Shown here one piece after another: positions 2,070-18,463 of a stretch of DNA of 20,000 bases. The stretch's first letter is position 1. Each line of letters opens with the position of its first letter. The notes beneath the pieces were generated by a model, which was given only the letters and a program-made list of their open reading frames with translations, was not told where the DNA came from and did not search any database. The stretch lies in IMG/VR virus record IMGVR_UViG_3300025630_000012. One strand, given 5' to 3'. Both the position numbers and the translations under genes were made by a program. Source of the stretch: an uncultured virus (IMG/VR IMGVR_UViG_3300025630_000012) (taxonomy: Duplodnaviria; Heunggongvirae; Uroviricota; Caudoviricetes).

Positions 2070-2282
2070 ATGGAAAATATCTATGCTTGGTTCGGAGGCA
2101 GAAAACTCTTTTTTGGGCTTTTGCTCTTCGTTATCTCGACCCTGTTGTTCTTGACGAGTGACAAAACTGATTTTGATGGTTGGTCTACCTTGGTGATGTG
2201 GATTTTCGGAATCTACGCAGTTGGTAACGTAGGCGAACACCTGTCTGATGGCATGAAGTCATCGCCCAAAGCAAAAAATTAA
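2070..2282 (+). CDS. Two-TM small membrane protein, holin-like
   Basis: GGRKLFFGLLLFVISTLLFL and WSTLVMWIFGIYAVGNV segments; charged C-tail; aataatc-ATG start. Confidence 0.6.
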   Translation: MENIYAWFGGRKLFFGLLLFVISTLLFLTSDKTDFDGWSTLVMWIFGIYAVGNVGEHLSDGMKSSPKAKN

Positions 2283-2300
2283 CCCCTTAAAAAGAAGAAG

Positions 2301-2411
2301 ATGAAAGGATTTCTCGACATCAAAGACCCCAACACGTTCTTGGGAGGTCAGAATGTTCACAATCTCTTGATTTTGGGCGCACTCGCGTTCATCATCACGA
2401 AGATTAAGTAA
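2301..2411 (+). CDS. 36-aa membrane micro-protein MKGFLDIKDPNTFLGGQNVHNLLILGALAFIITKIK
   Basis: Read manually. A-rich leader, C-terminal hydrophobic stretch + KIK, followed directly by a terminator. Confidence 0.6.
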   Translation: MKGFLDIKDPNTFLGGQNVHNLLILGALAFIITKIK

Positions 2412-2430
2412 TATCATAGAACATTTCAAG

Positions 2431-2465
2431 AGAAGCCTCTTCAAGCGAAGGGGTTTCTTTGTTTT
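2431..2465 (+). terminator. Rho-independent terminator
   Basis: AGAAGCCTCTTC-AAGC-GAAGGGGTTTCT 12-bp stem (two G:U pairs) followed by TTGTTTT. Confidence 0.75.
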
Positions 2466-2470
2466 AAGTC

Positions 2471-2893
2471 ATGGCGAATAAGAGAGCAGGTCGTAAAGGT
2501 GTAGCGCAGACGCCCGCACCCAAGAAGGAGCGCATACGAGGGAGCAAAAAGAACCCCGTAGGTAGTGCCTCTAAAAGCACGTCCAAACCTATCAATTTTA
2601 GTGAGGCTTTGGTTAAAAAAATTCGCTCATTTCTGAAAGAGTATAACGAAGCCAATCCAAGCAAAAAAATCACCCTTCCTACTGCCAAAAAGGTGGTGCG
2701 AAGAGGTATGGGCGCATATAGCGCAACGCATCGACCTACGATTACAGGCGGAAGACCCAATTCAAGGCAAGCATGGGGTTTAGCGAGGCTTCATGCCTTC
2801 GCTCGCAAAAAGTCGGGTTCTACCACCGCAAAAGGCGTGGTAAGGAGCAAAGCAGTTAAAAAGGCGTACACACAAGACAACGACCTGCTATGA
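2471..2893 (+). CDS. Basic viral protein, DUF5824-like
   Basis: KKVVRRGMGAYSATHRP...SRQAWGLARLHAF motif recalled from aquatic viruses; Lys/Arg-rich. Confidence 0.6.
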   Translation: MANKRAGRKGVAQTPAPKKERIRGSKKNPVGSASKSTSKPINFSEALVKKIRSFLKEYNEANPSKKITLPTAKKVVRRGMGAYSATHRPTITGGRPNSRQAWGLARLHAFARKKSGSTTAKGVVRSKAVKKAYTQDNDLL

Positions 2894-3558
2894 CAAATCA
2901 AGATAGAGAGAGGTACACCTTCAAAAATATATCTACCGCCCTATGTGTGATTTTGTTTTTTCTCTATGGGACGGAGAAGTTTCAAAGCGCGAAAGAAAAA
3001 GATGAGGCTTTGTCAACGATTATGACCCTACAAGACCAAAAAGAAAACTATGAATTGCAGGTCGATGAGTTGGGTCGCACGACCGCCACGCAAGCCGTCA
3101 TGCTGATTGATGCAAAAAAGGACTATGAAAGCCTACTCTCGGACTTCACTCAACTGAAAAACACCAAAAGTGAGACCAAGGTCTATACCGAGACGCGGGT
3201 AGATAGCGTGTACGTCCCTACGACCATCGTAGACACGATGTTTGTTGATTTGGACACCCTTCCTGTTTACCGCTTTGTCAAAGATGACGAATACTTTTTT
3301 ATTTCGGCAAGGGTGGGGGCAACAGAAACGCTTATTGAAAAGGTTTCATTTAAGAACGACATTACCTTTTCCCATCGGTGGGAGCGCAAAAATTTCTTGT
3401 CAAAAAAGACGTATTTTGTGGAGGTAAATAACACCAACCCATACGTCAGCATTCAAGGGCTTCAAAACTACACGATACAAGAGGATAAGAAGTTTTACGA
3501 GAGGGGTAGATTTTGGTATTTCGTTGGCTTGGGAAGTGGATTTTTATTAGCAAAATAA
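2890..3558 (+). CDS. Membrane-anchored coiled-coil protein, Bacteroidota-phage spanin-like (DUF6549-like)
   Basis: N-terminal TM, coiled coil, beta region with VEVNNTNPY, C-terminal KKFYE..FWYFVGLGSGFLL hydrophobic end; ATGA overlap. Confidence 0.55.
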   Translation: MTNQDRERYTFKNISTALCVILFFLYGTEKFQSAKEKDEALSTIMTLQDQKENYELQVDELGRTTATQAVMLIDAKKDYESLLSDFTQLKNTKSETKVYTETRVDSVYVPTTIVDTMFVDLDTLPVYRFVKDDEYFFISARVGATETLIEKVSFKNDITFSHRWERKNFLSKKTYFVEVNNTNPYVSIQGLQNYTIQEDKKFYERGRFWYFVGLGSGFLLAK

Positions 3559-4178
3559 TGGCAAATCAGAGCAAATCATTTGGTATATTCAGCGGTTCAG
3601 GCGGTGGCGGAGGTGGCGGTAGCATCACCATAAACAACCAAGCCGACACCCGTCTAATTACCTGTACGGGCACGGCAGATACTTTGGATGCGGAATCCAC
3701 TTTGACATTTGACGGGACAACGTTAAATATTGGCGGAGAGATGAGAGCGGAGCAAGTGTATGTGAATATGCGCTTCACAGGCTCACCTGTAAATGGAAAT
3801 TTCCTTGACGGCTCTCGCCTTGCAAGAGGACTTTTTTCTTCGGGGTCAGTTACGGGCGGAACAATTTACTATTTAGGGAGCGCAAGTATGGTAGTGGCTA
3901 ATGCCTCTTCCGTAGCTACGGCATCGGGCTTGTTAGCCGTGGGCACGGATGCGGCTTCACCAACAGAGATGCTTTTAGAGGGTGCGGTTAAAGTGCCTAA
4001 CAATGAGTTTTCTTCCGCCACCAAAGGCGATGTATTGTATCTCTCTGCCACATCAGGGGCGGTCACGGCTACTGCACCATCATCGGCAGGAGAGGTTGTG
4101 AGAGTTGTAGGGTATGTTTTAACTCCTGCGAGCGGTTATATTTATTGGTCTCCCGACAAAACTTGGCTTGAAATATGA
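3558..4178 (+). CDS. Virion spike/fibre-like structural protein (206 aa)
   Basis: Start reassigned to ATG 3558 (TAATG overlap). Poly-Gly linker; GDVLYLSATSGAVTATAPSSAGEVVRVVGYV module typical of aquatic phage structural proteins. Confidence 0.65.
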   Translation: MANQSKSFGIFSGSGGGGGGGSITINNQADTRLITCTGTADTLDAESTLTFDGTTLNIGGEMRAEQVYVNMRFTGSPVNGNFLDGSRLARGLFSSGSVTGGTIYYLGSASMVVANASSVATASGLLAVGTDAASPTEMLLEGAVKVPNNEFSSATKGDVLYLSATSGAVTATAPSSAGEVVRVVGYVLTPASGYIYWSPDKTWLEI

Positions 4179-5476
4179 GTAGCATAAACGGCATCAATAC
4201 GGCAGATATTGATAACATCAATGGGCTTGGTGTAAATCACGGAGTCCCTGTCGGCACATCGGGAGTCCTGTGGACTAATCCCCTTTTTGTGGCTGAACGA
4301 CCTACAAGTGGATTAAATATAACAGGCCAAACACGAGTCAACTCTTGGCAGTTCAGCACACGAACTGACATCATAGACATTAAGTATAGCCTGTACTCTA
4401 CTTTTGCTTTAAGTTCAGCAAATGTCCTCTATTCCTCCACTTATCCAACTCAAAAGCAAAACATAGGTAGACCAAGTGGTCTGACCGACTCGGAATATGC
4501 GGAGTTGGGGGAGTCGCTTACCAACGTTGCAAAGTTTGCGCCATCTTTCAATGTTTGTTTCGCGGTTAAAACTGACGGCACTTTATGGTGGTGTGGACAA
4601 GGCAATCAATATATTACCACTTCAGGTTCAGGACAAGGAACGACAAATTCTTTTTATGGATGGTTGCAATATGGTACGGATACCGATTGGGTAGACGTTG
4701 TAGGTTTTGCGTCGTATCCTTACACCGTCCTTGCAATAAAAGGTAGCGCAGGTTCACAATATCTTCATGGGGCAGGATATAACGCGAATTACAGGACGGG
4801 TCAAGGAACGACAAGTGGAATAGTATATGACTTTGCTCGCGTAAAAAGTGGTGCAGCCGTCGATTGGTCTGCGAGCATAAGTAAAGTTGCTATGGATTCG
4901 AATGTCGCAATCGCAGTTACGGAATCGGGAGAGTTATACACTTGGGGAGAGGGTCAAAATGGAACTCTCGGTACAGGCACTTTAACTGATTACCTATATC
5001 CCAACCAAATAGGTGTCGATACCGATTGGCAGATACCATTTGCGGAGGCACGAGCATCCTACGTTATCAAAACGGATGGCACTTTATGGGCTTGTCTTCA
5101 AAGTAACACTTACTTTCGTATTATCGGCAATGGAGGAGTCCCCACTCTTACATTTAATCAAGTCGGCACGGATACTGACTACGAATACATCACGACTATG
5201 GGAAGTGTCAGCCCGAACGTTGATAATCGCGGTTTGATATGCGCTAAAAAGAATGGCTCGTGGTATGTCAATGCGGCCTTGAAAGTGGGTGATTGGTCGC
5301 AGACGCTCGTAGACATTTATGATACTTATTCAGGCATTGACACTTGGTATGCTTACAATGATGCGCTTCAAGCCAATGACGTAACTAAATCAATAAACTT
5401 CCTTTCGCCCACCGCTGAACAATTCCAATCGAGCCTTTATGGGCAGGGGATAATAGTAGCCCTCGCCGCGACATGA
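4175..5476 (+). CDS. RCC1/BLIP-II-like beta-propeller protein, putative receptor-binding virion protein
   Basis: Repeats AVKTDGTLWWCG, AVTESGELYTWGEGQNGTLGTG, VIKTDGTLW, and G(T/V)DTD(W/Y) three times; N-terminal INGI..IDNING motif. Confidence 0.7.
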   Translation: MSSINGINTADIDNINGLGVNHGVPVGTSGVLWTNPLFVAERPTSGLNITGQTRVNSWQFSTRTDIIDIKYSLYSTFALSSANVLYSSTYPTQKQNIGRPSGLTDSEYAELGESLTNVAKFAPSFNVCFAVKTDGTLWWCGQGNQYITTSGSGQGTTNSFYGWLQYGTDTDWVDVVGFASYPYTVLAIKGSAGSQYLHGAGYNANYRTGQGTTSGIVYDFARVKSGAAVDWSASISKVAMDSNVAIAVTESGELYTWGEGQNGTLGTGTLTDYLYPNQIGVDTDWQIPFAEARASYVIKTDGTLWACLQSNTYFRIIGNGGVPTLTFNQVGTDTDYEYITTMGSVSPNVDNRGLICAKKNGSWYVNAALKVGDWSQTLVDIYDTYSGIDTWYAYNDALQANDVTKSINFLSPTAEQFQSSLYGQGIIVALAAT

Positions 5477-5745
5477 TAGCTGACAACCTATACACTTCAA
5501 TCGTCACGTCCGAGGACGAATTGCATACATTTTGGTACGACCCAAGCCTACCCTCTTATGCCTTTACTTTCATAGAGCAAAGCCTCGATGAATGTATAAA
5601 TAATGAGGACGGAACGTACACCGCCTCGTACTACGCAATCGAGGTTCTTGATGGAGAAAGTTTTTCATATAGTTATATGACCACAACGGGAGTTGTGCGA
5701 GGATTGGTTGGAGCGGGTATTTATGGCATAAAACCTGACGAATGA
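5473..5745 (+). CDS. Hypothetical acidic protein (90 aa), possible partner of the upstream propeller
   Basis: ATGA overlaps on both sides. Confidence 0.65.
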   Translation: MIADNLYTSIVTSEDELHTFWYDPSLPSYAFTFIEQSLDECINNEDGTYTASYYAIEVLDGESFSYSYMTTTGVVRGLVGAGIYGIKPDE

Positions 5746-6845
5746 CAAATCAAACACTACAATCATTCGGTATTCAGTCGGGTAGCGGTGGTGGTAGTGC
5801 TACGGATGCACAAAGAGTCATCGCAACCGCCAAAAACAAATCGGGCGGTACTTTGTTGAAAGGCACTCCCGTACACGCAATTACACCCATCTCTTCGGGA
5901 CAAATTGTGGAAGTCATCGCGGCACGTGCTGATACGCCTTCCGCGATGCCCGCGACGCTTGTTTTGGATGTAGAATTAGATGATGAGGAGGAGGGTGATG
6001 CCATCATTGTTGGCTTTATACAGGGCGTAGACACGTCAGGATTTACCGCAGGTGATGTTGTCTATGTTGGGACAACGGGGGGATATACCAAAACAAAACC
6101 TGTTTACCCTAACCTTATTCAAAATATCGGAGTAATCGTAAAAGTGAGCGCGTCTGCGGGGTCGGGTATTGTATATGGTTCGGGCAGGTCAAATGACGTT
6201 CCAAATCTTGCCGAAGGCACACTATTTATTGGCTCGTCCACGAACACAACGACAACCCCTTACAGGTTTCCTACATCGTCGCCAAGCGACAATCAGTTCT
6301 TACTTTACGATTCGTCGAGTACCGCATTTCTTGCTTCCGACTTAAAACCCCGTATGTCTTATTTTATGGGTGGCACAATTACGGGGTGGGGAATAGGGGC
6401 AAAATTGGTTATGAATAAAACGCCTAATGGCAGTTTACTCTCATCGTCAGTAGCAAGCCCTGTTTTGAGCACAACGAGCGATTTAACGGAATATACGATA
6501 CCCAACCTTGATGACTCTTTGCAGACAACCATAAGGTTTTCAGGATTTGTAACGTGTGAGGGCACGATAGCTTCGTCCATCACATTTCGGGTAGATATAG
6601 GTCTTTCAACACCCTCGAATGGCGCAACATCAGCCACATTTACGATGACGAATGGCACATCGCAATTTGCAGTATCTACCACATCAGGAGCGATGAACTT
6701 CTTTAACTATACGGCCTCATTTACCTCCGTATCCAACCAACTTATCATAGTATCATTAGCCAATACAAGCGCAATAACTGCAATTACGTCGGGTGATGTA
6801 AAAATCAATGCGCGAGTCGATATTGAGCAAAACTACACTTCATAA
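5742..6845 (+). CDS. Virion spike/fibre-like structural protein (367 aa)
   Basis: N-terminus similar to the 3558 protein; KN.SGGTL.KG.PV...GDVVYVG.TGG.T.TKP...LIQNIG...GSGRSNDVPNL module; Ser/Thr-rich beta C-terminal domain. Confidence 0.7.
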   Translation: MTNQTLQSFGIQSGSGGGSATDAQRVIATAKNKSGGTLLKGTPVHAITPISSGQIVEVIAARADTPSAMPATLVLDVELDDEEEGDAIIVGFIQGVDTSGFTAGDVVYVGTTGGYTKTKPVYPNLIQNIGVIVKVSASAGSGIVYGSGRSNDVPNLAEGTLFIGSSTNTTTTPYRFPTSSPSDNQFLLYDSSSTAFLASDLKPRMSYFMGGTITGWGIGAKLVMNKTPNGSLLSSSVASPVLSTTSDLTEYTIPNLDDSLQTTIRFSGFVTCEGTIASSITFRVDIGLSTPSNGATSATFTMTNGTSQFAVSTTSGAMNFFNYTASFTSVSNQLIIVSLANTSAITAITSGDVKINARVDIEQNYTS

Positions 6846-7012
6846 TGAACGAAGAAAACGCTTCAATGCAGGTATCATATCAGATTCCTGAAAATATGGG
6901 ACAAACCCTCTCGGAAATTTTCGCATGGACATTTTTTCTTATCATGTTAGGCGAAGTTGTATATGGTGAGACGGAAAAAAAGAAGATTCTTGCTTTTTGG
7001 GGTATTAAATAA
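6845..7012 (+). CDS. 55-aa hypothetical protein MNEENASMQVSYQIPENMGQTLSEIFAWTFFLIMLGEVVYGETEKKKILAFWGIK
   Basis: Read manually. TAATG overlap with the upstream stop; central hydrophobic segment. Confidence 0.5.
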   Translation: MNEENASMQVSYQIPENMGQTLSEIFAWTFFLIMLGEVVYGETEKKKILAFWGIK

Positions 7013-7070: not shown

Positions 7071-7286
7071 ATGTTAGAAGCCTTATCAAGCTACGAGTGG
7101 ATAGTGTTGTTGACGGGACTCGTAGGCGTGTATTTTAAGCTAAACAACGATATGTTGAAGGTCAAGAGTCGTGTTATGGTTCTTGAACGTAGCGAAACCG
7201 AGGTGAAGAAGATGCTTCAAAGCCTTCTCGACGCGGTAAACGACATCAAGTTGCTTTTAGCAGAACACGGCATCAAGTCCAAATAA
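7071..7286 (+). CDS. Single-TM + coiled-coil protein upstream of the endolysin; holin/antiholin candidate
   Basis: WIVLLTGLVGVYFKL followed by a heptad helix; adjacent to the amidase. Confidence 0.55.
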   Translation: MLEALSSYEWIVLLTGLVGVYFKLNNDMLKVKSRVMVLERSETEVKKMLQSLLDAVNDIKLLLAEHGIKSK

Positions 7287-7288
7287 TC

Positions 7289-7726
7289 ATGCGTGAGTTA
7301 AAGAAGATTGTCGTTCATTGTAGCGCAACGCAGGAGGGAAAGGATTATAGCGTTGAGACGATAAGAAAATGGCATACCGACCCCAAACCCAAAGGCAGGG
7401 GGTGGTCGGATGTGGGATACCACTATATCATAAGAAACGATGAACATGGAACGATTGAGTTAGGTCGTGATGTTCAGCGTTCGGGTGCTCACGTCAAAGG
7501 AGAAAATGCTGATTCTATTGGCATTTGTTACGTCGGGGGTGTTGATAAAGACATGAAGGCAAAGGATACTATGACCGATGTTCAAGAGGCTTCTTTGCGT
7601 AAACTTGTCGCGTCCTTACGGATGGTCTTTGGCGACTTGAAGTTGTACGGGCATAATGATTTTACAAATACGAAAGCGTGTCCAAGTTTCAAGGTCAAGG
7701 AAAAGTTCCCCGAATTGGTCGATTGA
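7289..7726 (+). CDS. N-acetylmuramoyl-L-alanine amidase (Amidase_2, T7 lysozyme-like endolysin)
   Basis: VVHCSAT, RGWSDVGYHY, GAHVKG.N..SIGICYVGG, GHND, KACPSF zinc-amidase motifs. Confidence 0.93.
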   Translation: MRELKKIVVHCSATQEGKDYSVETIRKWHTDPKPKGRGWSDVGYHYIIRNDEHGTIELGRDVQRSGAHVKGENADSIGICYVGGVDKDMKAKDTMTDVQEASLRKLVASLRMVFGDLKLYGHNDFTNTKACPSFKVKEKFPELVD

Positions 7727-7881: not shown

Positions 7882-7886
7882 GAATC

Positions 7887-8009
7887 ATGGCAAAAGCAGG
7901 AATGGGTTCAGGTCTTGTAAAGACCGCAGTTGCATTGGTAAGCCTCGGCTTGACCATCTTTGTTGCGGGATACGCTTGGACAATGGGTAAGAGTAAGGGC
8001 GCGAAGTAA
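7887..8009 (+). CDS. 40-aa single-TM micro-protein MAKAGMGSGLVKTAVALVSLGLTIFVAGYAWTMGKSKGAK
   Basis: Read manually. aagaatc-ATG start, one TM + basic tail, followed by a terminator. Confidence 0.7.
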   Translation: MAKAGMGSGLVKTAVALVSLGLTIFVAGYAWTMGKSKGAK

Positions 8010-8034
8010 TCGACGCTTTTACGGAACACATTTT

Positions 8035-8055
8035 AGGGGCTACGTGCCCCTTTTT
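8035..8055 (+). terminator. Rho-independent terminator
   Basis: AGGGGC-TACGT-GCCCCT followed by TTTT. Confidence 0.75.
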
Positions 8056-8103
8056 GTGTTGTCGTATTTTTGCTATATTAAATGATAACCAAAATGTATT
8101 GCT

Positions 8104-8592
8104 ATGCGACGAGTGCTCACTACGACGATAACCTTTTTCGTCTTACTTCTTGGTGTAGGCGAAAACCCCGTTCAAGAAATCATTAACGCCCAAGAAAAAG
8201 CAGGTTGCCAAGACCCTTACGCGCTCAACTACTGCCACACCTGTACGATTTCAGGAGGCGTTTGCTTTTACGACGAAGAGTTCAGGAAATCATGCGAAGA
8301 CCCATCAATTCATTGGAAATCAAAATACAATCCGCTAAATGAGCACAAGGCTCACTACAAGGTCGTCAGCTTTGAAGAGTGTTGGAAAGATTGGGACGTG
8401 AATATCTATGATTCCTTGGGAAGAACGCTTTGGTTTTCTGATATGCCAAATCAGAAATGGAACGGAAAAGATTTAATAGGCGATTATCTTCCGACAGGTG
8501 TTTATTTTATGACGATAAAGGGCGAGACACGTGGAAATACAAAAGAGGTTGACATCTTGACCGAAATTGAGATTTATTATCCTGAATTTTAA
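8104..8592 (+). CDS. Secreted protein made of one GCxD repeat plus a degenerate T9SS type-B (gliding-motility-associated, CHU_C-like) C-terminal domain
   Basis: N-terminal signal/TM; GCQDPYALNY; IYDSLGRTLW...WNGKD..G..LPTGVYF; colinear with the C-terminus of the 10698 protein. Confidence 0.7.
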   Translation: MRRVLTTTITFFVLLLGVGENPVQEIINAQEKAGCQDPYALNYCHTCTISGGVCFYDEEFRKSCEDPSIHWKSKYNPLNEHKAHYKVVSFEECWKDWDVNIYDSLGRTLWFSDMPNQKWNGKDLIGDYLPTGVYFMTIKGETRGNTKEVDILTEIEIYYPEF

Positions 8593-8598
8593 TATGAT

Positions 8599-8606
8599 TA
8601 GATTTG
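8599..8606 (+). promoter_or_regulatory. Bacteroidota-type -7 promoter box
   Basis: TAGATTTG, 19 nt upstream of ATG 8626. A similar TATTTTTG sits at 8065-8072 before the 8104 gene. Confidence 0.35.
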
Positions 8607-8625
8607 TGAGACGCAACTTAACTCA

Positions 8626-10701
8626 ATGAAAATCACTAACATAATTTTACTTCTTGTGCTTTCAGTAACATCTGCCATTGCACAAAGTCAGCAATGTGGA
8701 ACGGATGCGCTTATCATGGGACTGCCTCGTCAAGTGCGCTCAATGCCTCCTCCCGAAGTAGATTTAGATACGGCAGAAGTCATTGTAATTCCTGTTGTAT
8801 TCCATGTCGTACACTTGGGAGAACCGATAGGAGAAGGCACAAACATTAGTGATGAGCAGATACAAAGTGCAGTCGTCGCTCTGAACGAGGACTTCCGAAA
8901 GATTGAAGGGACAAATGGTGACGGCTTGGGTGTCGATACGAAGATTGAGTTTTGCTTGGCTTCGCGCACCCCCGACAATCAGCCTACGACGGGTATCGTA
9001 AGGCATGACGGCTCTGACCTATTCTATGAGGTCACTTTTTCGGGGCAGTATCAAATCGTCTACTATGCACAAGATGGTGTAACAAGTGCGGGGCAATTTA
9101 CATCTTCCCTTCAAGGTGTTCCTGCCTCTTACATGAAGCAGACCTTGGGGTGTTGGGACACCGATAATTACTTCAACATTTGGGTGGTAACGGAAATTGA
9201 TGGCAACGATGGGGGTAATGGTATCCAAGGATTTTCTTTCGTGGGGTATGGTAGCAGTTTTTGTGCCGACGGCCCTGTTCAGTTATACAACGTAACAGGC
9301 ACTACGGGCAACATCAAAACGGGCAATCTAAATAAGACAACGACTCACGAAGCGGGTCATGCCTTCAACTTGTTTCACACCTTTGGTTTGTCGGGTGTGT
9401 CAGGTGGCAGTTGTACCGAAACGAATTGCGAAACGCAAGGCGACCAAGTGTGTGATACTCCGCCAACTTCGGCAAACACAAGTTGTAATCCTGAATTTGC
9501 GTCTTGTCCTGACGCGCAGTTGGAGAACTACATGGATTACACACCGCAGTCATGCCGAAATACTTTTACACAAGGTCAGGCAGAGCGTATGCGTGATGAG
9601 TTGTGGAATAAAGTCAATGGATTCACTCAAAGCCTCGGTTGCTTGCCTGTCGTCGATTTAGATGGCGGTATATCGGCTATGTCTATTGGCAATCCAAACT
9701 GCGAAACTACATTCGACGTAAGCGTTACCATTGCTAATTATGGGGTTCAAGATTTGACCAATCCGACCATCACATTTTCTTTTGGTTCAAACATTCAAAA
9801 TTTTGACTTGGAACTCACGTTGGTGGCGGGTCAAACACACACCCAATCCTTTGAATTGACCTCCTTATCGTCAGCGACGATAGATGCGAATGTAACATTT
9901 CAAGAAGATGAGGACTACCTCGCTAACAACACGGAAAGTACGGAGTTCATTTATGAGCAAGGCAACGTGCTTCGGGTAGAAATTTCACCTGACGTTTGGT
10001 CAAATGAAATAGATTGGGAACTATTTGATGAGAGTGGTGAGGTCATCGCGTATGGCGGTAACTACCCTGTATTTTCGCAAGATTCAACGTTTGTTGAAGA
10101 GGTTTGCTTGTATGGGGCTTGCTACACTTTTGTGATGACTGATGGCGCAGGTGATGGTATGTGTCAATGGGATTTGAATGGTGATGGGATTTGTGATGGT
10201 TCATCCGATGCCTTCTTAAAAATCTATTTGAATAACGAGATAATCTATGATTTAAGCGCATTAGAAGACATTGATTTTGGGTCGATGCTCACCTTTGAAT
10301 TTTGCGACCAAATCGTAGATTGTGAAGGCGATGTAGATGGCGATAACATGGTTGGGGTGAACGACCTATTAGCTATTCTTGCCAACATTGGTTGTATATC
10401 AACGTCAGAGCCGTGTGAGGGCGACCTTGATGGCAACGGCACTACTGACAATGCTGATTTACAAGCGGTACTTGCCAATTATGGAAATTTTTGTTCGGGA
10501 ATTGCCCTTTCAGAAATAGTGAATGAAAAAGAGCCTACACTTATGCCAAAGGCTTTTGACTATGAAGCCCCTATCGGGTTGTATGATGTAATGGGTCGAA
10601 AAGTGTCAAACGACAAATCCGTATTGCGTAGAGGCATCTACATCGAGGTGTATGTCGATGACGCGGGTAATGTGGCTACACGCAAGATTTTCCTTCAATG
10701 A
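8626..10701 (+). CDS. Secreted M43 (pappalysin/ulilysin-like) zinc metalloprotease with Ig/CARDB-like domain, dockerin-like domain and T9SS type-A-like CTD
   Basis: Signal peptide; QCGT cysteine switch; IPVVFHVVH; HEAGHAFNLFH; DQVCDTPP; ENYMDY Met-turn; FTQGQ..RM; GDVDGDNMVGVNDLL/GDLDGNGTTDNADLQ; LYDVMGRKV...GIYI...TRKIF. Confidence 0.9.
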   Translation: MKITNIILLLVLSVTSAIAQSQQCGTDALIMGLPRQVRSMPPPEVDLDTAEVIVIPVVFHVVHLGEPIGEGTNISDEQIQSAVVALNEDFRKIEGTNGDGLGVDTKIEFCLASRTPDNQPTTGIVRHDGSDLFYEVTFSGQYQIVYYAQDGVTSAGQFTSSLQGVPASYMKQTLGCWDTDNYFNIWVVTEIDGNDGGNGIQGFSFVGYGSSFCADGPVQLYNVTGTTGNIKTGNLNKTTTHEAGHAFNLFHTFGLSGVSGGSCTETNCETQGDQVCDTPPTSANTSCNPEFASCPDAQLENYMDYTPQSCRNTFTQGQAERMRDELWNKVNGFTQSLGCLPVVDLDGGISAMSIGNPNCETTFDVSVTIANYGVQDLTNPTITFSFGSNIQNFDLELTLVAGQTHTQSFELTSLSSATIDANVTFQEDEDYLANNTESTEFIYEQGNVLRVEISPDVWSNEIDWELFDESGEVIAYGGNYPVFSQDSTFVEEVCLYGACYTFVMTDGAGDGMCQWDLNGDGICDGSSDAFLKIYLNNEIIYDLSALEDIDFGSMLTFEFCDQIVDCEGDVDGDNMVGVNDLLAILANIGCISTSEPCEGDLDGNGTTDNADLQAVLANYGNFCSGIALSEIVNEKEPTLMPKAFDYEAPIGLYDVMGRKVSNDKSVLRRGIYIEVYVDDAGNVATRKIFLQ

Positions 10702-12662
10702 TTCGAGGGTTAATTTTCATACTATCGCTACTGACGTTCTCGCAAGCGAACGCACAATGGTGCGATATGGAAATTCTTGGGTTTGACCCTGTAACTCTTG
10801 AAATAACGTTAGCTATCAATGGTGCGGAGTGCGGTACGGAAGCGGACTCCATAGGAGAATTTATTTTGGGTTTGACATTCGACCCGCCCGTACCTGCCGA
10901 AGAAAATCCTTTTGATTGCTTTTACCAAGAAGGCTTTTCTCTTTTGCTTTTCCCCCTTGATTTCCCCTTTGTCAATATCGGTCAAGGTTCAGACGAAATT
11001 ATTCAGCAAGGCGATACATTATCCTTCAATATCATAGAAAGCCAACCCTTTGGTTTCGATGCCTCCCTTTGTTGGCAAGAGGCTATCAATAGTGGGGCTT
11101 TTGATGAGTGCATAACAATATACATCCACCAAATCAACGATAGCGACAGCTATTACGGAGATTCGGGTCTTGGGGGATTTCCGTATCCTGACTTAATCCC
11201 CGAAAACAATACACTTACGTTTTCTTTTACGGATGCCTGTGGAGGATTGCCCCCACCCCCACTTGACGGAGGGTGTACTGATGAGGATGCTATCAACTAT
11301 GATGAAGATGCGGACTTCGACGATGGTAGTTGTTTGTTTGTAGACCTCTCAATTCCATACACACTTATTCAGTTTGGTTGTGATACTGCAACCTTCGATT
11401 GGACATTTCAGCCTGATATTAAGGTGTGGAACTTTGGCGACGTTATGCCTGACGAATACTGCATAGACGTTTTTCTCAATGGCGAGACCGAACCATACCA
11501 AACGGAGTGTTACAATACACCTATCCCTTATGGAGAGTATGTTCTGATAGAAATGCCCACATACTTTCCCGAACAGGATGGATATAATATCCCGTTGGAA
11601 TCAATAGCTTTTGTCCTATCAAACGTTGAGGGAGACAACAACCCTTCTAACGATGACATCTTTGTAGGGGAAATCGGCATCATTTATCCCAATAACTGCA
11701 TAATAGAAGGTTGTACTGACGAATCGGCATCCAATTACGACCCCGAAGCTAACGTAGACGATGGCTCGTGCGAGTATCCCGTAATGGGTTGCACCGACCC
11801 CGAAGCATTGAACTACAATCCACTTGCCACGGAAGACGATGGCTCGTGCGAATATCCTGTTTTGGGTTGTACCGACCCCGAAGCGTTGAACTACAATCCA
11901 CTTGCCACGGAAGATGACGGCTCGTGTGAGTATCCAATTTTAGATGCAGAATTGGAACTATTGACCAATGCGGGCTTGTTCTGCGACACGTTGCTTGGTG
12001 AATACTTTATACCCGTTGTTTACTTTATCAATACGGGTAACGTGCCTATCACGAGCCTTTGTGCGATGTACTCTACCAACGTCGAAAGTGTCTTTGCTTG
12101 CGACTATCAAATTACTTACGAAGGTGAGCAAGTGCTTGTGATTTTCCCCGAAATTTATGAGCAAAATAATGGCGAAATATCGGTCGAGATTTTAAGTATT
12201 AACGGCTTTCCCGTAGAAGGAAATCTCTACACGGCATCGGACATCATTACGTTTGGGACGTTTGAATGTATTGAGGGTTGTATGGATGAAAATGCTCTGA
12301 ACTACGACCCTTTAGCACAAACGGAAGACGGGAGTTGTCAATACGAGGGCAACCCAAACGGGGATTGTGATGACCCCCCTCTTTATATTCCAAACGTTTT
12401 CAGCCCGAACAATGACGGAAAAAATGATTATTGGAAGGCGGTAACTCCCGCTGAATGTTGGAGGGAGTTTGAGTTAATCGTATTCAACCGATGGGGAGGA
12501 ATCGTTTGGCAAACCGACGACCCTAATGCTTTTTGGCTTGGAGAGGGAGAAGGATTAACCCACTACGTTGCCGATGGGGTATATGTCTATAAGGTGAGTG
12601 CCGTAGGTTATGATGTCTCGAATTGGGTTGTTCGGACAGGTCACGTGACGATTTTCCGCTGA
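10698..12662 (+). CDS. Secreted acidic surface protein with five GCTD..A.NY..DDGSC repeats and T9SS type-B CTD (TIGR04131/CHU_C-like)
   Basis: Signal peptide (..ANAQ); LYIPNVFSPNNDGKND, FNRWG, DGVYVY, GHVTIFR. Confidence 0.88.
   Translation: MIRGLIFILSLLTFSQANAQWCDMEILGFDPVTLEITLAINGAECGTEADSIGEFILGLTFDPPVPAEENPFDCFYQEGFSLLLFPLDFPFVNIGQGSDEIIQQGDTLSFNIIESQPFGFDASLCWQEAINSGAFDECITIYIHQINDSDSYYGDSGLGGFPYPDLIPENNTLTFSFTDACGGLPPPPLDGGCTDEDAINYDEDADFDDGSCLFVDLSIPYTLIQFGCDTATFDWTFQPDIKVWNFGDVMPDEYCIDVFLNGETEPYQTECYNTPIPYGEYVLIEMPTYFPEQDGYNIPLESIAFVLSNVEGDNNPSNDDIFVGEIGIIYPNNCIIEGCTDESASNYDPEANVDDGSCEYPVMGCTDPEALNYNPLATEDDGSCEYPVLGCTDPEALNYNPLATEDDGSCEYPILDAELELLTNAGLFCDTLLGEYFIPVVYFINTGNVPITSLCAMYSTNVESVFACDYQITYEGEQVLVIFPEIYEQNNGEISVEILSINGFPVEGNLYTASDIITFGTFECIEGCMDENALNYDPLAQTEDGSCQYEGNPNGDCDDPPLYIPNVFSPNNDGKNDYWKAVTPAECWREFELIVFNRWGGIVWQTDDPNAFWLGEGEGLTHYVADGVYVYKVSAVGYDVSNWVVRTGHVTIFR
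11709..11936 (+). repeat. 78-bp tandem coding repeat x3 (GCTDPEALNYNPLATEDDGSCEYPV[LM])
   Basis: Units start at 11709, 11787 and 11865; units 2 and 3 are nearly identical in DNA. Dispersed copies near 11271 and 12275. Confidence 0.9.
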
Positions 12663-13378
12663 TAGTTCATAATTGTTTCCCAATGCCAATCAAGATTCTG
12701 ATTGACAAGCCTTATTTCGTCGTCAGAGAGGCTTAAATCGCGCTCTTCGTAGAGCGGAAGGGTGGTGTTGCCCTTGTAGTGCAAAAGGTCTTCAAAACGC
12801 TCATTTCGAGGTTGGATGCGAAACTTTTTTGATAGTAAACGCAAATTGGCCTCGAAATCTTCTTGTAGGTCTTCAAGACGGAGCACTACCATGTTCTGAC
12901 ACATCTTTGGAAATTCGTGAAAGATGAAGTTCAGCTTGTAGCTACGAAGAGCAAAGAGGTTCTTATGCCTTTTCATCGTAACAAGATTCCTGTCAGCCAT
13001 AATTTCTTCTCCCACTTCACCCGCAATGTTTGGTATGTTTTGGTCTTTTATCGAAAAAAATTCAGAGGTAATAAAATCTGAAAAATTCAATGAATGAAAG
13101 TGTTCGGGAACGTGCCACTTTTTTCGGTAAAAACTTTCAGCCCACGTGTATGGGTCACGCACCATGATGACAAGCAGTAAATCCTTGGGATAGTTCTCCT
13201 TTCTCTTTGTCCAAAAGTGCTTGTGACCATAGTCCTCGCAATGCTCGATATTCAAGTTGTGCTGAATGAGGCGTTGTGCATAGTAAGTACCGCTACAACG
13301 CTCTCCAAGTATTTTGAATCGGGAAACACCTTTTCCCTTCCGCAAAAAAGGCTCGTTAGGGTAGCTGAACTTTATCAT
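12641..13378 (-). CDS. Sulfotransferase-like (P-loop/PAPS-binding) protein, 245 aa
   Basis: Start reassigned to ATG 13378, right after the recT stop. ILGERCSGT (5'-PSB-like), VRDPYTWAES (3'-PB-like), LRLEDL. Confidence 0.65.
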   Translation of the reverse strand: MIKFSYPNEPFLRKGKGVSRFKILGERCSGTYYAQRLIQHNLNIEHCEDYGHKHFWTKRKENYPKDLLLVIMVRDPYTWAESFYRKKWHVPEHFHSLNFSDFITSEFFSIKDQNIPNIAGEVGEEIMADRNLVTMKRHKNLFALRSYKLNFIFHEFPKMCQNMVVLRLEDLQEDFEANLRLLSKKFRIQPRNERFEDLLHYKGNTTLPLYEERDLSLSDDEIRLVNQNLDWHWETIMNYQRKIVT

Positions 13379-13379
13379 A

Positions 13380-14252
13380 TCAATCAAACAACCCCTTTGG
13401 CTCTTCAACTTCCTCCGCCTCTACAACTTCTTCTTCGTTGTTGCCGTCGGAAAGTGCTTGGGCAAAAACATTGGACTTGCCAAAGTTCCGTGCTGAACGC
13501 TTATTGACTTCGATGATTTCGTCGCCATCCAACGTAAGGAAGCCACCACCTTCGACCACGTTGTCGTAGTGAAGCGAAGACCCAAGTTGAAACTCTTTGG
13601 GAACGAGTTTTAAGAGTTGTTTAAGGCACGTCTTTTTCAGCATCCAACCCTGCGGGTCTTTGTCCCGATTAAACCAAATACCTTTGTTTCCTGCCTTGCT
13701 GATGGACTGAATTTCCTGCAATTCAGAACGCGACATCACCTTAAACATAGGCTCTCCTTCTCGAAACTTGACGACCGAGTAAACGTGCGTCAGTTGACCT
13801 CTCTCTCCCGCAGAGGGCTTATGATTCAAGAAGGGGTCAAGGCCAAGACCATATTCAAAGTCGTCGGTTTCATAGACGAGTTCTGCGCTGATGGATTTGA
13901 TAGCGGGATTGCGATATGCCAACTTTACAAGCCCCTGATAGCCCAACTGAAATTGGCAAACATCGCCATACGGAATGAGCCAACACTCACCGACTTCGGG
14001 TGAGGGACTCAAGCCATACTCTGCACATAGAAGGAGCGAAGCAAAAAGCGAGGCAGGGTTCTTCTCCACGACGGCAAGCAACTTCTTATCACGCTTTACG
14101 GCATTGTAAGCCATAGCAAGAAAACGCTCAACATTGATGTTAGGATTTGTGGTTAGCAAGTCCGTAATCCTGTCCTTATAGGCATAGAGTTGGTTCTTAA
14201 AGAGCGTGACGTTAGCCTTGCGCTTATCGGTTGTTATTTTTGATGTAGACAT
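13380..14252 (-). CDS. recT: RecT-family single-strand annealing recombinase
   Basis: SLFASLL.CAEYGLSP, CWLIPY, CQFQLGYQGLVKLAYR, VYE.D.F.Y.LG, W...MLKKT.LKQLLK.VP; acidic C-tail. Confidence 0.92.
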   Translation of the reverse strand: MSTSKITTDKRKANVTLFKNQLYAYKDRITDLLTTNPNINVERFLAMAYNAVKRDKKLLAVVEKNPASLFASLLLCAEYGLSPSPEVGECWLIPYGDVCQFQLGYQGLVKLAYRNPAIKSISAELVYETDDFEYGLGLDPFLNHKPSAGERGQLTHVYSVVKFREGEPMFKVMSRSELQEIQSISKAGNKGIWFNRDKDPQGWMLKKTCLKQLLKLVPKEFQLGSSLHYDNVVEGGGFLTLDGDEIIEVNKRSARNFGKSNVFAQALSDGNNEEEVVEAEEVEEPKGLFD

Positions 14253-14850: not shown

Positions 14851-15207
14851 TTATTTCTCGAAACCCAAGTACACGAGTTCGCTATAAAGTTGTTTCAGCG
14901 ATGCGCTCTCAACACTCTTCCCTGCCCGCGCTATCTCACCAATCATATACATCTCGGTATCATAAAGTTCAATCGCATCTATTCCGTAGACCTCGCTAAT
15001 TTTTTGCACATTAACGTGCATCACGTTGCCTCCTTTACGCCATTTTGAAAGCGTCTGACGTGATATTCCTGTGTCTTTTTCTACATCGTTCATGGTCTTG
15101 CCTTTCACATACATCATAAGGAAAAGACCTTGCACAAAACTTTCTTTTGTCTTGTCGAGTAGGCGCAATAATCGAACGTCGTTGGGTGTGTAGTGGTATT
15201 CGCTCAT
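14851..15207 (-). CDS. XRE/Cro-type helix-turn-helix transcriptional regulator (118 aa)
   Basis: Start reassigned to ATG 15207 (ATGA overlap). KGKTMNDVEKDTGISRQTLSKWRKG...KISEVYGI. Confidence 0.85.
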   Translation of the reverse strand: MSEYHYTPNDVRLLRLLDKTKESFVQGLFLMMYVKGKTMNDVEKDTGISRQTLSKWRKGGNVMHVNVQKISEVYGIDAIELYDTEMYMIGEIARAGKSVESASLKQLYSELVYLGFEK

Positions 15208-16001
15208 ATCTGACTTGTATAGTAGACCTTCTCCACCTCTGCAAACTCCGTCTTGTGCTTGCAGTCGTATGCGAGAGGACAATTTCTGCATCTTAACATA
15301 GAGGGCTTCGCCTTGAAACCATCTTTGAGTTGCTTTTCCAAATACACCTTTGCATCGGCTAACTCGCGCTCGTGCAAATCGTATTCGTCTTCGTCAACTT
15401 CAACTTTTATGATTCGATAATCTTTTTCATTTGTGGTACTAAAAACCCAAAAGTAAAATGGCACATCGTCAGTTTGAAAGAGGTTGCGAGCGATATACTT
15501 GTAATGCACCGCTTGCGTCAATAGCTTCATCTTTGGCTTATATGGGTTGGCTATATCCTCCCATCCAATCGGATTCCACTTGTCACGTATCAGACCCGAA
15601 GCCTTCAAATCAATAATCGCCAATTGCCCATCCACTTTCGCTATAATGTCCGTTGTGCCACGAGCATTGCCATATTCGATGTCTTCGCCTACGCTTTTGA
15701 TTTCTATGTCGTAGTGCTTCAAGAGAGCCTTAAAGTTTGCTACCTGATACTCCATGCGCTCATAAGCCTTGGCAAGATTGCCATTTTTCAAACGCTTGGC
15801 TTCGGGAACTCGCTCACTATCGTAGGGTGGCAATGCCCCCGTACATTCATATTCAAACCATTGACCGAGAAGTTGGGCTTCGGAAGGTGGAAAGACAACC
15901 TTGTCCACATATTGCGCCTTGATTTTAAGACCACACTCTTCGCCCTCGATGTATGCCCGCATCGTTTTAAGGATGCTTTGGCTGATTTTTCTATCACTCA
16001 T
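15204..16001 (-). CDS. PD-(D/E)XK nuclease (Cas4/RecB-like exonuclease) with C-terminal Cys cluster
   Basis: ISQS.LK N-terminus; GTTDII...IIDLKAS; QAVHY; CRNCPLAYDC. Confidence 0.85.
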   Translation of the reverse strand: MSDRKISQSILKTMRAYIEGEECGLKIKAQYVDKVVFPPSEAQLLGQWFEYECTGALPPYDSERVPEAKRLKNGNLAKAYERMEYQVANFKALLKHYDIEIKSVGEDIEYGNARGTTDIIAKVDGQLAIIDLKASGLIRDKWNPIGWEDIANPYKPKMKLLTQAVHYKYIARNLFQTDDVPFYFWVFSTTNEKDYRIIKVEVDEDEYDLHERELADAKVYLEKQLKDGFKAKPSMLRCRNCPLAYDCKHKTEFAEVEKVYYTSQI

Positions 16002-16446: not shown

Positions 16447-16522
16447 TGGTGCGCCCAACAGGACTTGAACCTGTAACCGCCTGATTATGAGTCAGGAGCA
16501 CTAACCATTGTGCTATGGGCGC
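16447..16522 (-). tRNA. tRNA with CAU anticodon, most likely tRNA-Ile2 (lysidine, reads AUA); CCA encoded
   Basis: GCGCCCA/TGGGCGC acceptor; CCTGA-CTCATAA-TCAGG anticodon arm; GGTTCAAGTCC T arm; C4:G69 and C5:G68; no initiator GGG/CCC. Confidence 0.9.
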
Positions 16523-16527
16523 AGATG

Positions 16528-16671
16528 TTAGGTCAATTCATTAAAAACATTGATTCCCATAAGAACAAAGGCATACAACAACGCAATAAGCAAGGCATAT
16601 TGAATCGTTTTGAAAATGACAGGCAAAACCTTGCTCCAAAAGAACCGCTCTAAATTGTGATATAATTCCAT
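16528..16671 (-). CDS. 47-aa single-TM micro-protein between tRNA genes
   Basis: MELYHNLERFFWSKVLPVIFKTIQYALLIALLYAFVLMGINVFNELT; ATG at 16671, 16 nt after tRNA-Leu. Confidence 0.55.
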   Translation of the reverse strand: MELYHNLERFFWSKVLPVIFKTIQYALLIALLYAFVLMGINVFNELT

Positions 16672-16687
16672 GTTCAATAGTTTTTCG

Positions 16688-16773
16688 TAGTCGGGGCGGG
16701 AATCGAACCCGCACTCTCCGTTCGGAGAAAAGCAGTTTAAGTGCTTCGTGTCTACCAATTCCACCACCCGACC
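16688..16773 (-). tRNA. tRNA-Leu(UAA)
   Basis: GGTCGGG/CCCGACT acceptor; AAGCA-CTTAAAC-TGCTT; long variable arm TCTCC-GAAC-GGAGA; GGTTCGATTCC; no encoded CCA. Confidence 0.92.
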
Positions 16774-16776
16774 AAG

Positions 16777-16850
16777 TACCCCCGACAGGACTCGAACCTG
16801 TAACCTACGCATTAGAAGTGCGTTGCGCTATCCTGTTGCGCTACGAGGGC
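16777..16850 (-). tRNA. tRNA-Arg(UCU)
   Basis: GCCCTCG/CGGGGGT acceptor; ACGCA-CTTCTAA-TGCGT; GGTTCGAGTCC; no encoded CCA. Confidence 0.92.
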
Positions 16851-16899: not shown

Positions 16900-17556
16900 T
16901 TACTTTTGAACACTTCGATGTAGTTTGGTCACGTCATAATTAGCGAGACCTTTTCCGCGATTGGCTCTCCACCATTGGCGGTTTTCCGCCTTACGATTTT
17001 CGTGCATGAACTCCTCGCAGTATTGCGCGTATGTTACCAATTCAGAGGTAAAGTTTGAAGTCCTACGCATGAATTGCACGATTTGCGTCTTGGAGAATGA
17101 CTTGCGCTTACGCTTGCGCCCTCGCCCATCGCTCTTTCGTGGGTCTCCCTGTTTGCCCAACGACCACTCGTGGCGGGTCTTGGTATCACTCGACTTTCTC
17201 AAATCCCTCTTTACCTGTTTCTTGACCAAAACTTCGATTTGAGGCTTTGAATCTGCCACAAGGTTTACATCGAGGTTCATGATTTTCGAAATCATGAGTT
17301 CCTTTACCCCCACAATCATTTCCTGATATGTAGGGTATGAAAGAGGCGACTTGTCATCACCTACAATCGTTCTAAAAGCCTCACCATTGTAATTGATAGT
17401 GATGGGCTGACCCGTTACTCGATGAAACGCCTTCATCAATTTCTCAAAGTTCTCCATAGATGGTTTTTTGGAGTTGGACAAATAGTTGACGGGTGCAATG
17501 TATGGAGTGTCGGGTTTACTTCCAAATGACATCGCAATTTTGTAAATTCGCATCAT
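16900..17556 (-). CDS. Basic hypothetical protein (~218 aa), possible N-terminal HTH-like DNA-binding domain
   Basis: Start taken at ATG 17556/17553. NYLSNSKKPSMENFEKL resembles the end of an XRE HTH; RKSDGRGRKRKRK basic patch. Start is uncertain. Confidence 0.6.
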   Translation of the reverse strand: MMRIYKIAMSFGSKPDTPYIAPVNYLSNSKKPSMENFEKLMKAFHRVTGQPITINYNGEAFRTIVGDDKSPLSYPTYQEMIVGVKELMISKIMNLDVNLVADSKPQIEVLVKKQVKRDLRKSSDTKTRHEWSLGKQGDPRKSDGRGRKRKRKSFSKTQIVQFMRRTSNFTSELVTYAQYCEEFMHENRKAENRQWWRANRGKGLANYDVTKLHRSVQK

Positions 17557-18463
17557 GTTCAACAACCCAATTTTTGAATATGCGGGATTCAACAATCCTT
17601 TGGGTTCTGACCCGTATATAGTGTCGTTGGTGAACACAAATGACTTTGAAGAGGAAATCAGCCTTTTTAATGCCCAAGAAAATCTCATAAAAGAAAATTT
17701 AGGACTACCACAGGGTGTTACATCGAATGCCGAATGGATATTTGAGATGCCGTCAGAGCAAACCTTTACGTGCTTTGAGCCGTTGGTTGGATTCAACAAT
17801 AACACCGATTTTTTCTTGGAGGACGAAAACGGGAATGTTTTACGCCAATTCAGGGTGACGGCAACGATAGATTCTTTTAAGGCCATTACGGAGGCTTTCA
17901 ACGGGATTACAAATGAGGCTCTTTATCGGTTTGATAGCGTACCCCCAAGAATCATATTGAATGCTACCTCTGAATTTGCATCTTTCCCATTTGTCCAAGA
18001 TGCAAGATTTGTCTTTTTTGTTACAAGTTTGCAGGAGGCGACTAAGGGTTTGCAGTTGGTGGAATTACGTGCCGTAAACTCTACTACCTATCCGTGCTTG
18101 GATAGATTTGCATTGACCGCAATACAAACGGGATTTAACAACAATGATTCGACGAATGCCTCGTCTTATGCAGAAATTTTGCAGACGACAAACTTTGCCC
18201 CCTTCGGTGTCGATTCTTTGGTTTTGCAGTCGCCAAAAATCACGAAGTTGGCAGAAAACCCCGTCTATGTTACTGAAAAGGACGCCAACGGCAACAGGGA
18301 GCAACAACAAGTCACTCTCTTGCGTAGCCCATATATGCGACCCAACCAAAGAGTCATCAGCAACCTCCGTAAAATTGATGGAGCGACTGAAATAAGTTTT
18401 ACCTTGCCTAAAAGCACCTCTGCCACCCTATTTATCTACGACAAATACCGAATGATGCCATGA
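17555..18463 (+). CDS. Beta-rich protein A (302 aa), paralog of the next gene; candidate jelly-roll capsid/penton protein
   Basis: SDPYI...LFNAQENL and SSY.E.LQ...DANG...PYMR..QR...IDG.T blocks shared with the 18460 protein. Confidence 0.7.
   Translation: MFNNPIFEYAGFNNPLGSDPYIVSLVNTNDFEEEISLFNAQENLIKENLGLPQGVTSNAEWIFEMPSEQTFTCFEPLVGFNNNTDFFLEDENGNVLRQFRVTATIDSFKAITEAFNGITNEALYRFDSVPPRIILNATSEFASFPFVQDARFVFFVTSLQEATKGLQLVELRAVNSTTYPCLDRFALTAIQTGFNNNDSTNASSYAEILQTTNFAPFGVDSLVLQSPKITKLAENPVYVTEKDANGNREQQQVTLLRSPYMRPNQRVISNLRKIDGATEISFTLPKSTSATLFIYDKYRMMP

Follow-up and report, generated by a model that had tools for sequence, protein, structure and literature searches.

Cargo of the type IX secretion machinery (the T9SS) accounts for a large share of the surface and secreted proteome in Bacteroidota, which rank among the major degraders of proteins and polysaccharides in aquatic and gut habitats. 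SprB of Flavobacterium johnsoniae is an example of bacterial cargo with a type-B C-terminal domain (CTD), and type-B cargo often, though not universally, needs a PorP/SprF-like partner. Among metallopeptidases, family M43 comprises the cytophagalysin, ulilysin and pappalysin subgroups, and among phage proteins, T5 Llp is a receptor-masking protein. Here we analyse a cassette of three genes (products P0001, P0002 and P0003) in IMG/VR record IMGVR_UViG_3300025630_000012, an uncultured virus assigned to Caudoviricetes. "The window" refers to the whole stretch of 20,000 nucleotides (nt) that was analysed, which covers ~59.7-79.7 kb on a metagenome contig of 102,007 bp (L080).

The closest described system is the "Cryophage" of Bellas et al. 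2020 (Nat Commun, PMC7468147), which encodes T9SS cargo in three variable, type-A-tagged genes (an endoglucanase, a GH39 protein and a PA14 protein) and is called a unique occurrence. The first-pass annotation of the window knew of no described phage module of this type, for which this is a precedent: phage-encoded T9SS cargo as such is already known, and it is a rarely described route for a virus to alter the host surface. No further report of it was found in the parts of the literature searched, including sections of PMC7113391 and PMC13712720. Gliding and T9SS genes of Flavobacterium are reported to decide phage sensitivity (PMC9804748), and prophage FimU mimics (PMC12952977) count among phage morons and receptor-masking proteins.

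Our analysis points to a conserved module that encodes three Sec-exported proteins, would use the T9SS of the host and is carried by an uncultured large tailed phage of a Flavobacteriales-type host; taken jointly, we regard this identity and route as probable, with considerable reserve. The three open reading frames (ORFs) are intact, co-oriented and closely packed, exactly as first annotated:

8104-8592, plus strand: P0001, 162 amino acids (aa), a near cargo-less CHU_C-like protein
8626-10701, plus strand: P0002, 691 aa, an M43 metallopeptidase
10698-12662, plus strand: P0003, 654 aa, a T9SS type-B cargo protein

Signal-peptide-like segments were seen at all three N-termini, as had been proposed, with hydrophobic cores reaching 2.7-3.5 in 9-residue hydropathy. 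P0002 has an AIA|Q site and P0003 an ANA|Q site, and the signal-like N-terminus of P0001 is less canonical than these.

P0003 provides the firmest T9SS assignment. Its CTD (residues 564-635 of 654) passed both curated type-B models, PF13585 at 56.3 bits (cut-off 27) and TIGR04131 at 36.3 (cut-off 35), and by sequence the protein is clearly a canonical T9SS type-B (CHU_C/TIGR04131) cargo protein. An N-terminal beta domain is followed by five CxDxxAxNYxxxAxxDDGSC modules (at 193, 339, 365, 391 and 528), set between immunoglobulin (Ig)-like domains, and then by the CTD. The AlphaFold model (predicted local distance difference test, pLDDT, 74) consists of tandem beta-sandwich/Ig domains, and the full model returned generic tandem Ig/adhesin matches alone in Foldseek (template modelling score about 0.1). 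Most of the 5,649 relatives detected end in PF13585 or PF18962, and named relatives are called "gliding motility-associated-like protein". The CHU_C region (556-633) also has a phage counterpart, at 40.5% identity (E 8e-6), in a part of the uncultured phage LR745206.1 (634 kb) that bears no annotation.

P0001 consists of little more than such a domain: a hydrophobic N-terminus, one degenerate Cys module (35-54) and a CHU_C-like beta domain (84-147), with hardly any cargo. Its CTD passed PF13585 at 30.3 bits (cut-off 27). Since all eight members of its family match CHU_C at E <= 0.1, the tag appears borderline but real; five of the eight also match Por_Secre_tail weakly. Homologues of P0001 occupy the equivalent site in seven related contigs (L081-L087), at 86% identity in L081 and 45-50% in the others. 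A tag-only protein was also seen elsewhere: contig L108 encodes a 149-aa CHU_C-only protein (6557-7003), placed 3' of an M43 gene and a gene for a 1290-aa CHU_C protein, where P0001 instead precedes its pair.

P0002 matched PF05572, the family suggested in the first-pass annotation, at 60.7 bits (cut-off 23). Its zinc site (HEAGHAFNLFH, 241-251) is intact and accompanied by a Met-turn, with H241, E242, H245, H251 and M303 invariant in 26 homologues, and Cys24 in the pro-segment is near-invariant across homologues; P0002 is thus predicted to be a catalytically complete M43 zinc peptidase. The order of parts is signal peptide, Cys24 pro-segment, M43 domain, weak CARDB-like Ig domain, beta domain, dockerin-like module (~562-625), linker and tail (~647-691).

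We modelled the last 130 residues of P0002 from a 27-row alignment (pLDDT 78.7). Residues ~562-625 were modelled as a two-helix, Ca-binding, dockerin-like module (2y3n_B, Z 9.2, root-mean-square deviation (rmsd) 2.1 Å over 60 residues), and comparison of the C-terminal profile with the 2y3n_B chain gave a dockerin match at E 2.2e-8. The Pfam dockerin score of P0002 itself was 14.7-18.6 bits, under the PF00404 cut-off of 22.9, and 18 of its 27 relatives matched PF00404 at E <= 1 (best 3.9e-7). Beyond a linker that is disordered in the model lies a tail of ~45 aa with four beta strands (pLDDT ~90). The best structural matches to this tail (5y1a, Z 3.7; 8qb1_A, 3.3; 8glk_D, 3.3; 8gl6_D, 3.1; 8gl8_D, 2.8; 8glj_D, 2.7, rmsd 2.6 over 42) are CTDs of T9SS substrates, namely HBP35, mirolase, NucA, RemA, RemZ and FspA. 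PF18962 was found in 0 of 120 P0002 homologues among the matches listed. A complex prediction of P0003 residues 21-555 with the P0002 dockerin module returned no answer (score 0.00), and no conclusion on binding is drawn from it. None of the three cassette proteins had a match in PHROGs.

The surroundings of the cassette are of phage type. As the first-pass annotation described, it lies between the terminator of a lysis module and a convergent operon on the minus strand:

6845-7012 and 7071-7286, plus strand: small ORFs with a hydrophobic segment, lysis module, upstream of the endolysin
7289-7726, plus strand: amidase endolysin (N-acetylmuramoyl-L-alanine amidase, Amidase_2; phrog_822 E 3.7e-56; PF01510 54 bits)
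7887-8009, plus strand: 40-aa ORF with a single hydrophobic helix (best 17-mer hydropathy 2.14), the final gene before the terminator
8035-8060, plus strand: G+C-rich intrinsic terminator hairpin (AGGGGC-loop-GCCCCT and a T run) that ends the lysis operon
8065-8072, plus strand: candidate Bacteroidota -7 box TATTTTTG, 32 nt 5' of the P0001 ATG
8599-8606, plus strand: candidate -7 box TAGATTTG, 20 nt 5' of the P0002 ATG
12641-13408, minus strand: conserved convergent ORF without a family match, the right boundary (22-nt tail-to-tail overlap with the P0003 stop)
13380-14252, minus strand: RecT-like recombinase (phrog_148 E 2.7e-59; PF03837 122.8 bits)
16447-16850, minus strand: tRNA cluster Met-CAT, Leu-TAA, Arg-TCT, within the minus-strand operon (ARAGORN)

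Phage-type genes stand on both sides of the cassette, with the amidase on the left and, on the right, RecT followed by an XRE-type helix-turn-helix (HTH) protein, a PD-(D/E)XK exonuclease and phrog_8676, all on the minus strand. At least eight related metagenome contigs (L081-L088, 3.4 to 84 kb), found in a metagenome scan with the M43 alignment, share this backbone and carry the same cassette at the same site, as the first-pass annotation had proposed to check. Wherever their DNA reaches, the gene order is amidase, small ORF, P0001 homologue, M43, P0003 homologue, the counterpart of ORF 12641-13408 (w12641), RecT and, further on, exonuclease. Endolysin homologues 65-72% identical to that of the window sit at the equivalent site in L082-L087, the terminator hairpin is kept 5' of the P0001 homologue in L081-L087, and homologues of ORF 12641-13408 (58-94% identical) sit at the equivalent site in L081, L085, L087 and L088.

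Identity to the distant relatives is 45-63% for the cassette proteins and 58-85% for the flanks; in close relatives (L081, L088) the figures are 83-93% and 94-99%. Since these cassette identities are comparable to those of the flanks, the block has long been carried with the backbone while evolving somewhat faster. Between the window and L081, dN/dS was 0.33 for P0001, 0.21 for M43 and 0.10 for P0003, compared with 0.013-0.13 for seven flank genes (the HTH ORF and ORF 16900-17901 were left out, as their coordinates include probably non-coding 5' extensions), indicating that the cassette is under purifying selection. Over the same pair of genomes, dS was 0.59 for M43 versus 0.10-0.26 for its neighbours. 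In place of the single M43 gene of the window, L081 carries two in tandem (608-2632 and 2645-4717; 56% and 83% identical to P0002); L089, L095, L102 and L104 have tandem copies too.

Both ends of the cassette are bridged by contigs from other runs, the left junction by X12 record 17 (spanning 7884-8673) and the right by X12 record 21 (12240-13011) and X11 record 14 (12404-12711). In run X11, most of 7927-10746 was uncovered at >=85% likeness and no contig crossed the gap, from which nothing is concluded. As a lead only, the closest ESM Atlas clusters to ORF 5742-6845 are 92-100% viral. The cassette is, on this genomic evidence, virus-borne and internal to the element, as had been claimed for it.

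The peptidase and its CHU_C partner also occur well beyond this lineage. The only IMG/VR match to P0002 lies on G001, a 113-kb contig whose M43 is 62% identical to P0002 and on which nearly all of 100 ORFs of >=120 aa are on one strand. G001 belongs to the T4-like myoviruses and encodes the capsid protein Gp23 (E 1.2e-78), a prohead protease, a tail sheath protein, gp32, UvsX-like RecA, PolB, ribonucleotide reductase (RNR) and PhoH. Near one end it has genes for a protein of 1170 aa that combines P0003-like Cys modules with a type-A Por_Secre_tail (39.3 bits), and at the same end for a 904-aa SusC-like TonB-dependent receptor, a 632-aa CHU_C protein and the M43. The receptor gene (103024-105738; 3024-5738 of L164) is full-length, with CarboxypepD_reg, Plug and barrel, and lies directly 5' of the CHU_C and M43 genes; it is unusual for a phage to carry an outer-membrane transporter. 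At 60-80 kb (L162), the same contig has an extended series of sugar genes, which encode NeuB, a cytidylyltransferase, a UDP-glucose dehydrogenase, an epimerase and five or more glycosyltransferases, along with two Mom-family genes, a DruA-like gene, IMPDH and GroEL.

A scan of IMG/VR with the P0003 family gave 629 pattern matches, 599 of which encode relatives. Among the best 79 loci the CTD was covered in 35, and M43 lay within ~2 kb upstream in 10, abutting as in the window in seven; in all four annotated loci the pair sits among genes for class II RNR, primase-helicase, ThyX, DHFR, amidase and UvdE. We also annotated 11 unclassified metagenome loci with an M43 of the same clade. PolA, helicases and an amidase surround it in L147, and an ERF protein, a PD-(D/E)XK protein and a primase-helicase in L157; ThyX is nearby in L091, L097 and L099, the last with 7-deazaguanine genes as well. 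The context is ambiguous in L089, L095, L102 and L104 (ClpP, M23 peptidases, a DenV-like glycosylase, amidase). In L099, genes for QueC, a QueD-like protein, a radical-SAM protein, FolE2, ThyX and a MazG-like protein (1055-3082 and 11192-12148) flank the M43 and CHU_C pair. L089 has a bacteriorhodopsin-like gene (117-755; PF01036, E 5e-15) on a contig with tandem clade M43 genes, ClpP and an M23 peptidase with PG_binding.

We placed these copies in a FastTree phylogeny of 175 M43 homologues with a midpoint root (one from the window, eight from its lineage, 11 from IMG/VR, 70 from other metagenome contigs and 85 from species-representative bacterial genomes or metagenome-assembled genomes, MAGs). 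The clade that holds P0002 has 48 rows at support 96, or 50 at support 62, and is composed of the window, its eight lineage copies, 9 (11) IMG/VR copies and 30 unclassified metagenome copies. All 20 viral or window-lineage copies are inside it and, among the matches listed, 0 of the 85 bacterial rows; the G001 copy is nested within the window lineage (support 95). Of the 30 clade loci with room for it, 24 have a CHU_C gene within 4.5 kb 3' of M43, versus 3 of 97 outside, and 39 of 50 clade rows have the C-terminus with dockerin and tail, versus 2 of 125 others. The closest M43 in 185,579 bacterial species genomes, again among the matches listed, was 43% identical to P0002, with relatives of this kind mostly ending near residue 512, and phage-context copies were 56-93% identical. 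The bacterial relatives listed belong almost all to Flavobacteriales, Cryomorphaceae or Crocinitomicaceae. An M43 and CHU_C pair of this clade recurs in further phage lineages and was absent from the sampled bacterial genomes, and the M43-dockerin clade looks virus-associated.

These observations suggest how the module may work. P0001, P0002 and P0003 would be exported by Sec, after which the host T9SS would deliver P0003, and probably also P0001, to the surface of the cell, to which type-B cargo normally remains attached. P0002 might leave by the same route via its short CTD-like tail, be held at the surface via its dockerin-like module, or both. A T9SS-bearing Flavobacteriales host is proposed because of the T9SS tags and the Flavobacteriales/Cryomorphaceae affiliation of the bacterial M43 relatives.

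What the module does for the phage can be suggested tentatively. The first-pass annotation had named remodelling of the surface, exclusion of superinfection or release of nutrients as candidate functions. Surface-tethered proteolysis that feeds the infected cell is a possible function, and the one we favour, because the bacterial cousins of P0002 are secreted peptidases and the G001 pair abuts a SusC-like receptor, an arrangement in keeping with the way in which Bacteroidota combine a surface enzyme with an importer. It is rather doubtful, though conceivable, that P0002 destroys or masks protein receptors, leading to superinfection exclusion or shielding progeny from debris; an envelope or lysis accessory role seems unlikely. 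The repeated neighbourhood of lysis genes speaks for both of these roles. A more elaborate surface machine is more speculative still: a T9SS-displayed P0003 scaffold, with M43 docked onto it via the dockerin-like module and P0001 occupying or retuning the type-B cargo receptor, might strip receptors from cell and debris, excluding rival phages and sparing progeny, with the enzyme family, as its clade contains viral and unclassified metagenome copies and none from the sampled bacterial genomes, having evolved in viruses and been exchanged between unrelated backbones.

Several results weigh against a phage-borne module that uses a host T9SS. The first-pass annotation had given all three proteins T9SS CTDs, one type-A-like and two type-B-like; type B stood for P0003 and, as a borderline case accepted by Pfam and not by NCBIfam, for P0001, and the type-A assignment of P0002 failed every hidden Markov model (HMM) test. 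P0001 was below both NCBIfam cut-offs (TIGR04131, 16 against 35; TIGR04183, 19 against 23) and matched only positions 17-79 of the 86 in the CHU_C profile, the N-terminal PNxFTPNxDGxND part being absent. The whole of P0002 had no Por_Secre_tail or TIGR04183 match at E <= 1, its last 90 aa had none even at E <= 10, and one of 27 homologous C-termini gave a match (E 0.059). By the tool's own notes, tail Z scores of 2.7-3.7 are not significant, so that the likeness to solved CTDs is weak. The search for a PorP/SprF-like partner gene gave none among 28 flank ORFs at E <= 0.01, and the presence of a T9SS in the host is itself deduced from the tags and the M43 relatives. The TAnnTTTG boxes noted earlier at 8065 and 8599 are present, but such sites are no more frequent in the window than chance predicts (17 observed, 16.9 expected), and both exact boxes recur only in L081; L082-L084 have TATTTTTA in place of TAGATTTG before the M43 gene.

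Further points bear on the carrier and on the tree. No capsid, portal or terminase gene was found in the window, 20 kb of a 102-kb contig. Scans of the IMG/VR collection with close P0003 patterns, ORF 5742-6845, RecT and an exonuclease alignment found no relative of the window lineage, and GenBank phages gave no DNA match to the 20 kb and no protein match to ORF 229-1380, for which the ESM Atlas likewise had no usable match. The rows of the M43 tree are the matches listed from genome and metagenome scans, and "MAG" labels among them may hide binned phage contigs.

The alternative that fares best against the T9SS module is a lysis accessory, in which the products are exported to the periplasm or outer membrane only (a protease severing envelope tethers or surface layers during burst, for instance) and the CHU_C-like domains are Ig-like binding modules, not T9SS signals. 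The cassette is directly 3' of the lysis genes in the window and L082-L087, and distant M43 and CHU_C pairs have as neighbour an amidase in L147 (57% identical), L172 and L095, and in L157, L171, L175 and L183 a homologue of ORF 7071-7286, the small membrane ORF. The lack of a recognisable CTD in P0002 and of a PorP/SprF-like gene among the window ORFs fits this explanation too. Nevertheless, P0003 exceeds both curated type-B cut-offs with a domain at its extreme C-terminus, a conserved terminator parts the cassette from the lysis operon, and the pair stands apart from lysis genes in G001 and in several IMG/VR loci; we consider this lysis-accessory explanation improbable.

It is very improbable that P0003 and P0001 belong to the virion, as fibre or decoration proteins whose Cys-motif modules act as receptor-binding units. 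Residues 326-421 of P0003, in the Cys-module region, are 46% identical to a "virion structural protein" of Synechococcus phage S-CAM3 in the GenBank phage set, the genes lie at the end of a late, structural-looking region, and Ig-like domains follow one another in the model of P0003. However, the Sec-type N-termini of all three proteins are unfit for virion assembly in the cytoplasm, the terminator separates the cassette from the late operon as well, and the homologues are named as gliding-motility-associated CTD proteins and end in PF13585 or PF18962. Host chromosome beside a prophage, or a chimeric assembly, is largely refuted and hardly credible: Flavobacteriales genomes do encode many M43 and CHU_C proteins, and the lineage is absent from the IMG/VR collection searched, yet phage-type genes on both sides, one gene order in at least eight independent contigs with flank-like divergence of the cassette, junctions bridged in other runs and, among the matches listed, a best bacterial M43 (43% identical) more distant than the phage-context copies (56-93%) make either origin very unlikely.

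Returning to the T9SS module and its phage carrier, the remaining features of the window concern the neighbouring genes. The lysis-type region also holds a 67-aa ORF, listed between the endolysin and the 40-aa ORF. A window hairpin search found no terminator after P0003, and a profile search of the window ORFs found no integrase. RecT has matches in 807 GenBank phage records, all distant (31-35% identity). The tRNA cluster hints at a lytic lifestyle; ORF 16528-16812, which overlaps it, is probably spurious. The 5' extension of the HTH ORF (14851-15291, minus strand) runs into the exonuclease gene, and since L081 has an in-frame stop in this extension, the true start is probably a Met ~28 codons in. 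Because ORF 16900-17901 overlaps the opposite-strand ORF 17555-18463 by 346 nt, its TTG start is probably too far upstream. ORFs 17555-18463 and 18460-19410 (plus strand) are neighbouring paralogues (~26% mutual identity) conserved in L081, L087 and L088. In the late region, 4175-5476 (plus strand) encodes a 433-aa RCC1-repeat protein (PF25390/PF00415; PHROGs 7220, 4219 and 16766), adjoined by a weakly Phage_cement_2-like ORF (3513-4178).

If the T9SS module is real, infection would change what a cell degrades or displays, and the CTD fusions and peptidase would offer a testable handle on viral use of a host secretion system. That the M43-dockerin clade appears confined to viral contexts also suggests that part of the peptidase diversity labelled "bacterial" in metagenomes belongs to viruses.

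Compared with known systems, the window most resembles the Cryophage: in both, T9SS-tagged products are encoded inside an uncultured phage genome by genes more variable than the core (here, window versus L081, 83-92% for the cassette and 94-99% for the flanks). Unlike the type-A tags of the Cryophage, the tags here are type-B (CHU_C), the products are an M43 peptidase, an adhesin-like protein and a near cargo-less tag, and the gene set is kept in all eight relatives (L081-L088) and recurs in other phage backbones. P0003 resembles bacterial type-B cargo in its signal-peptide-like N-terminus, its repetitive Ig-like body and its CTD above both cut-offs, and differs in being phage-encoded with no adjacent PorP/SprF-like gene found; P0001 departs further, retaining the distal two thirds of the domain only. 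P0002 shares with the M43 family PF05572, HExxHxxxxxH, the Met-turn and the pro-segment Cys, but falls in a clade of its own, marked by a dockerin-like module and a short beta tail. The dockerin-like module, as modelled, recalls the cohesin-dockerin tethering of cellulosomal enzymes, whereas its Pfam score is below cut-off and no cohesin was recognised in P0003 or P0001. Like morons and receptor-masking proteins, the cassette appears as an autonomous block behind a terminator, dispensable for virion building and with envelope-bound products; unlike morons, it lies in a window without an integrase, and its mechanism would be enzymatic or T9SS-based. What appears new here is the combination of type-B tags, a cargo set of protease, adhesin-like protein and tag-only protein, stable gene content within the lineage, a peptidase clade that seems tied to viruses, and recurrence in unrelated backbones.

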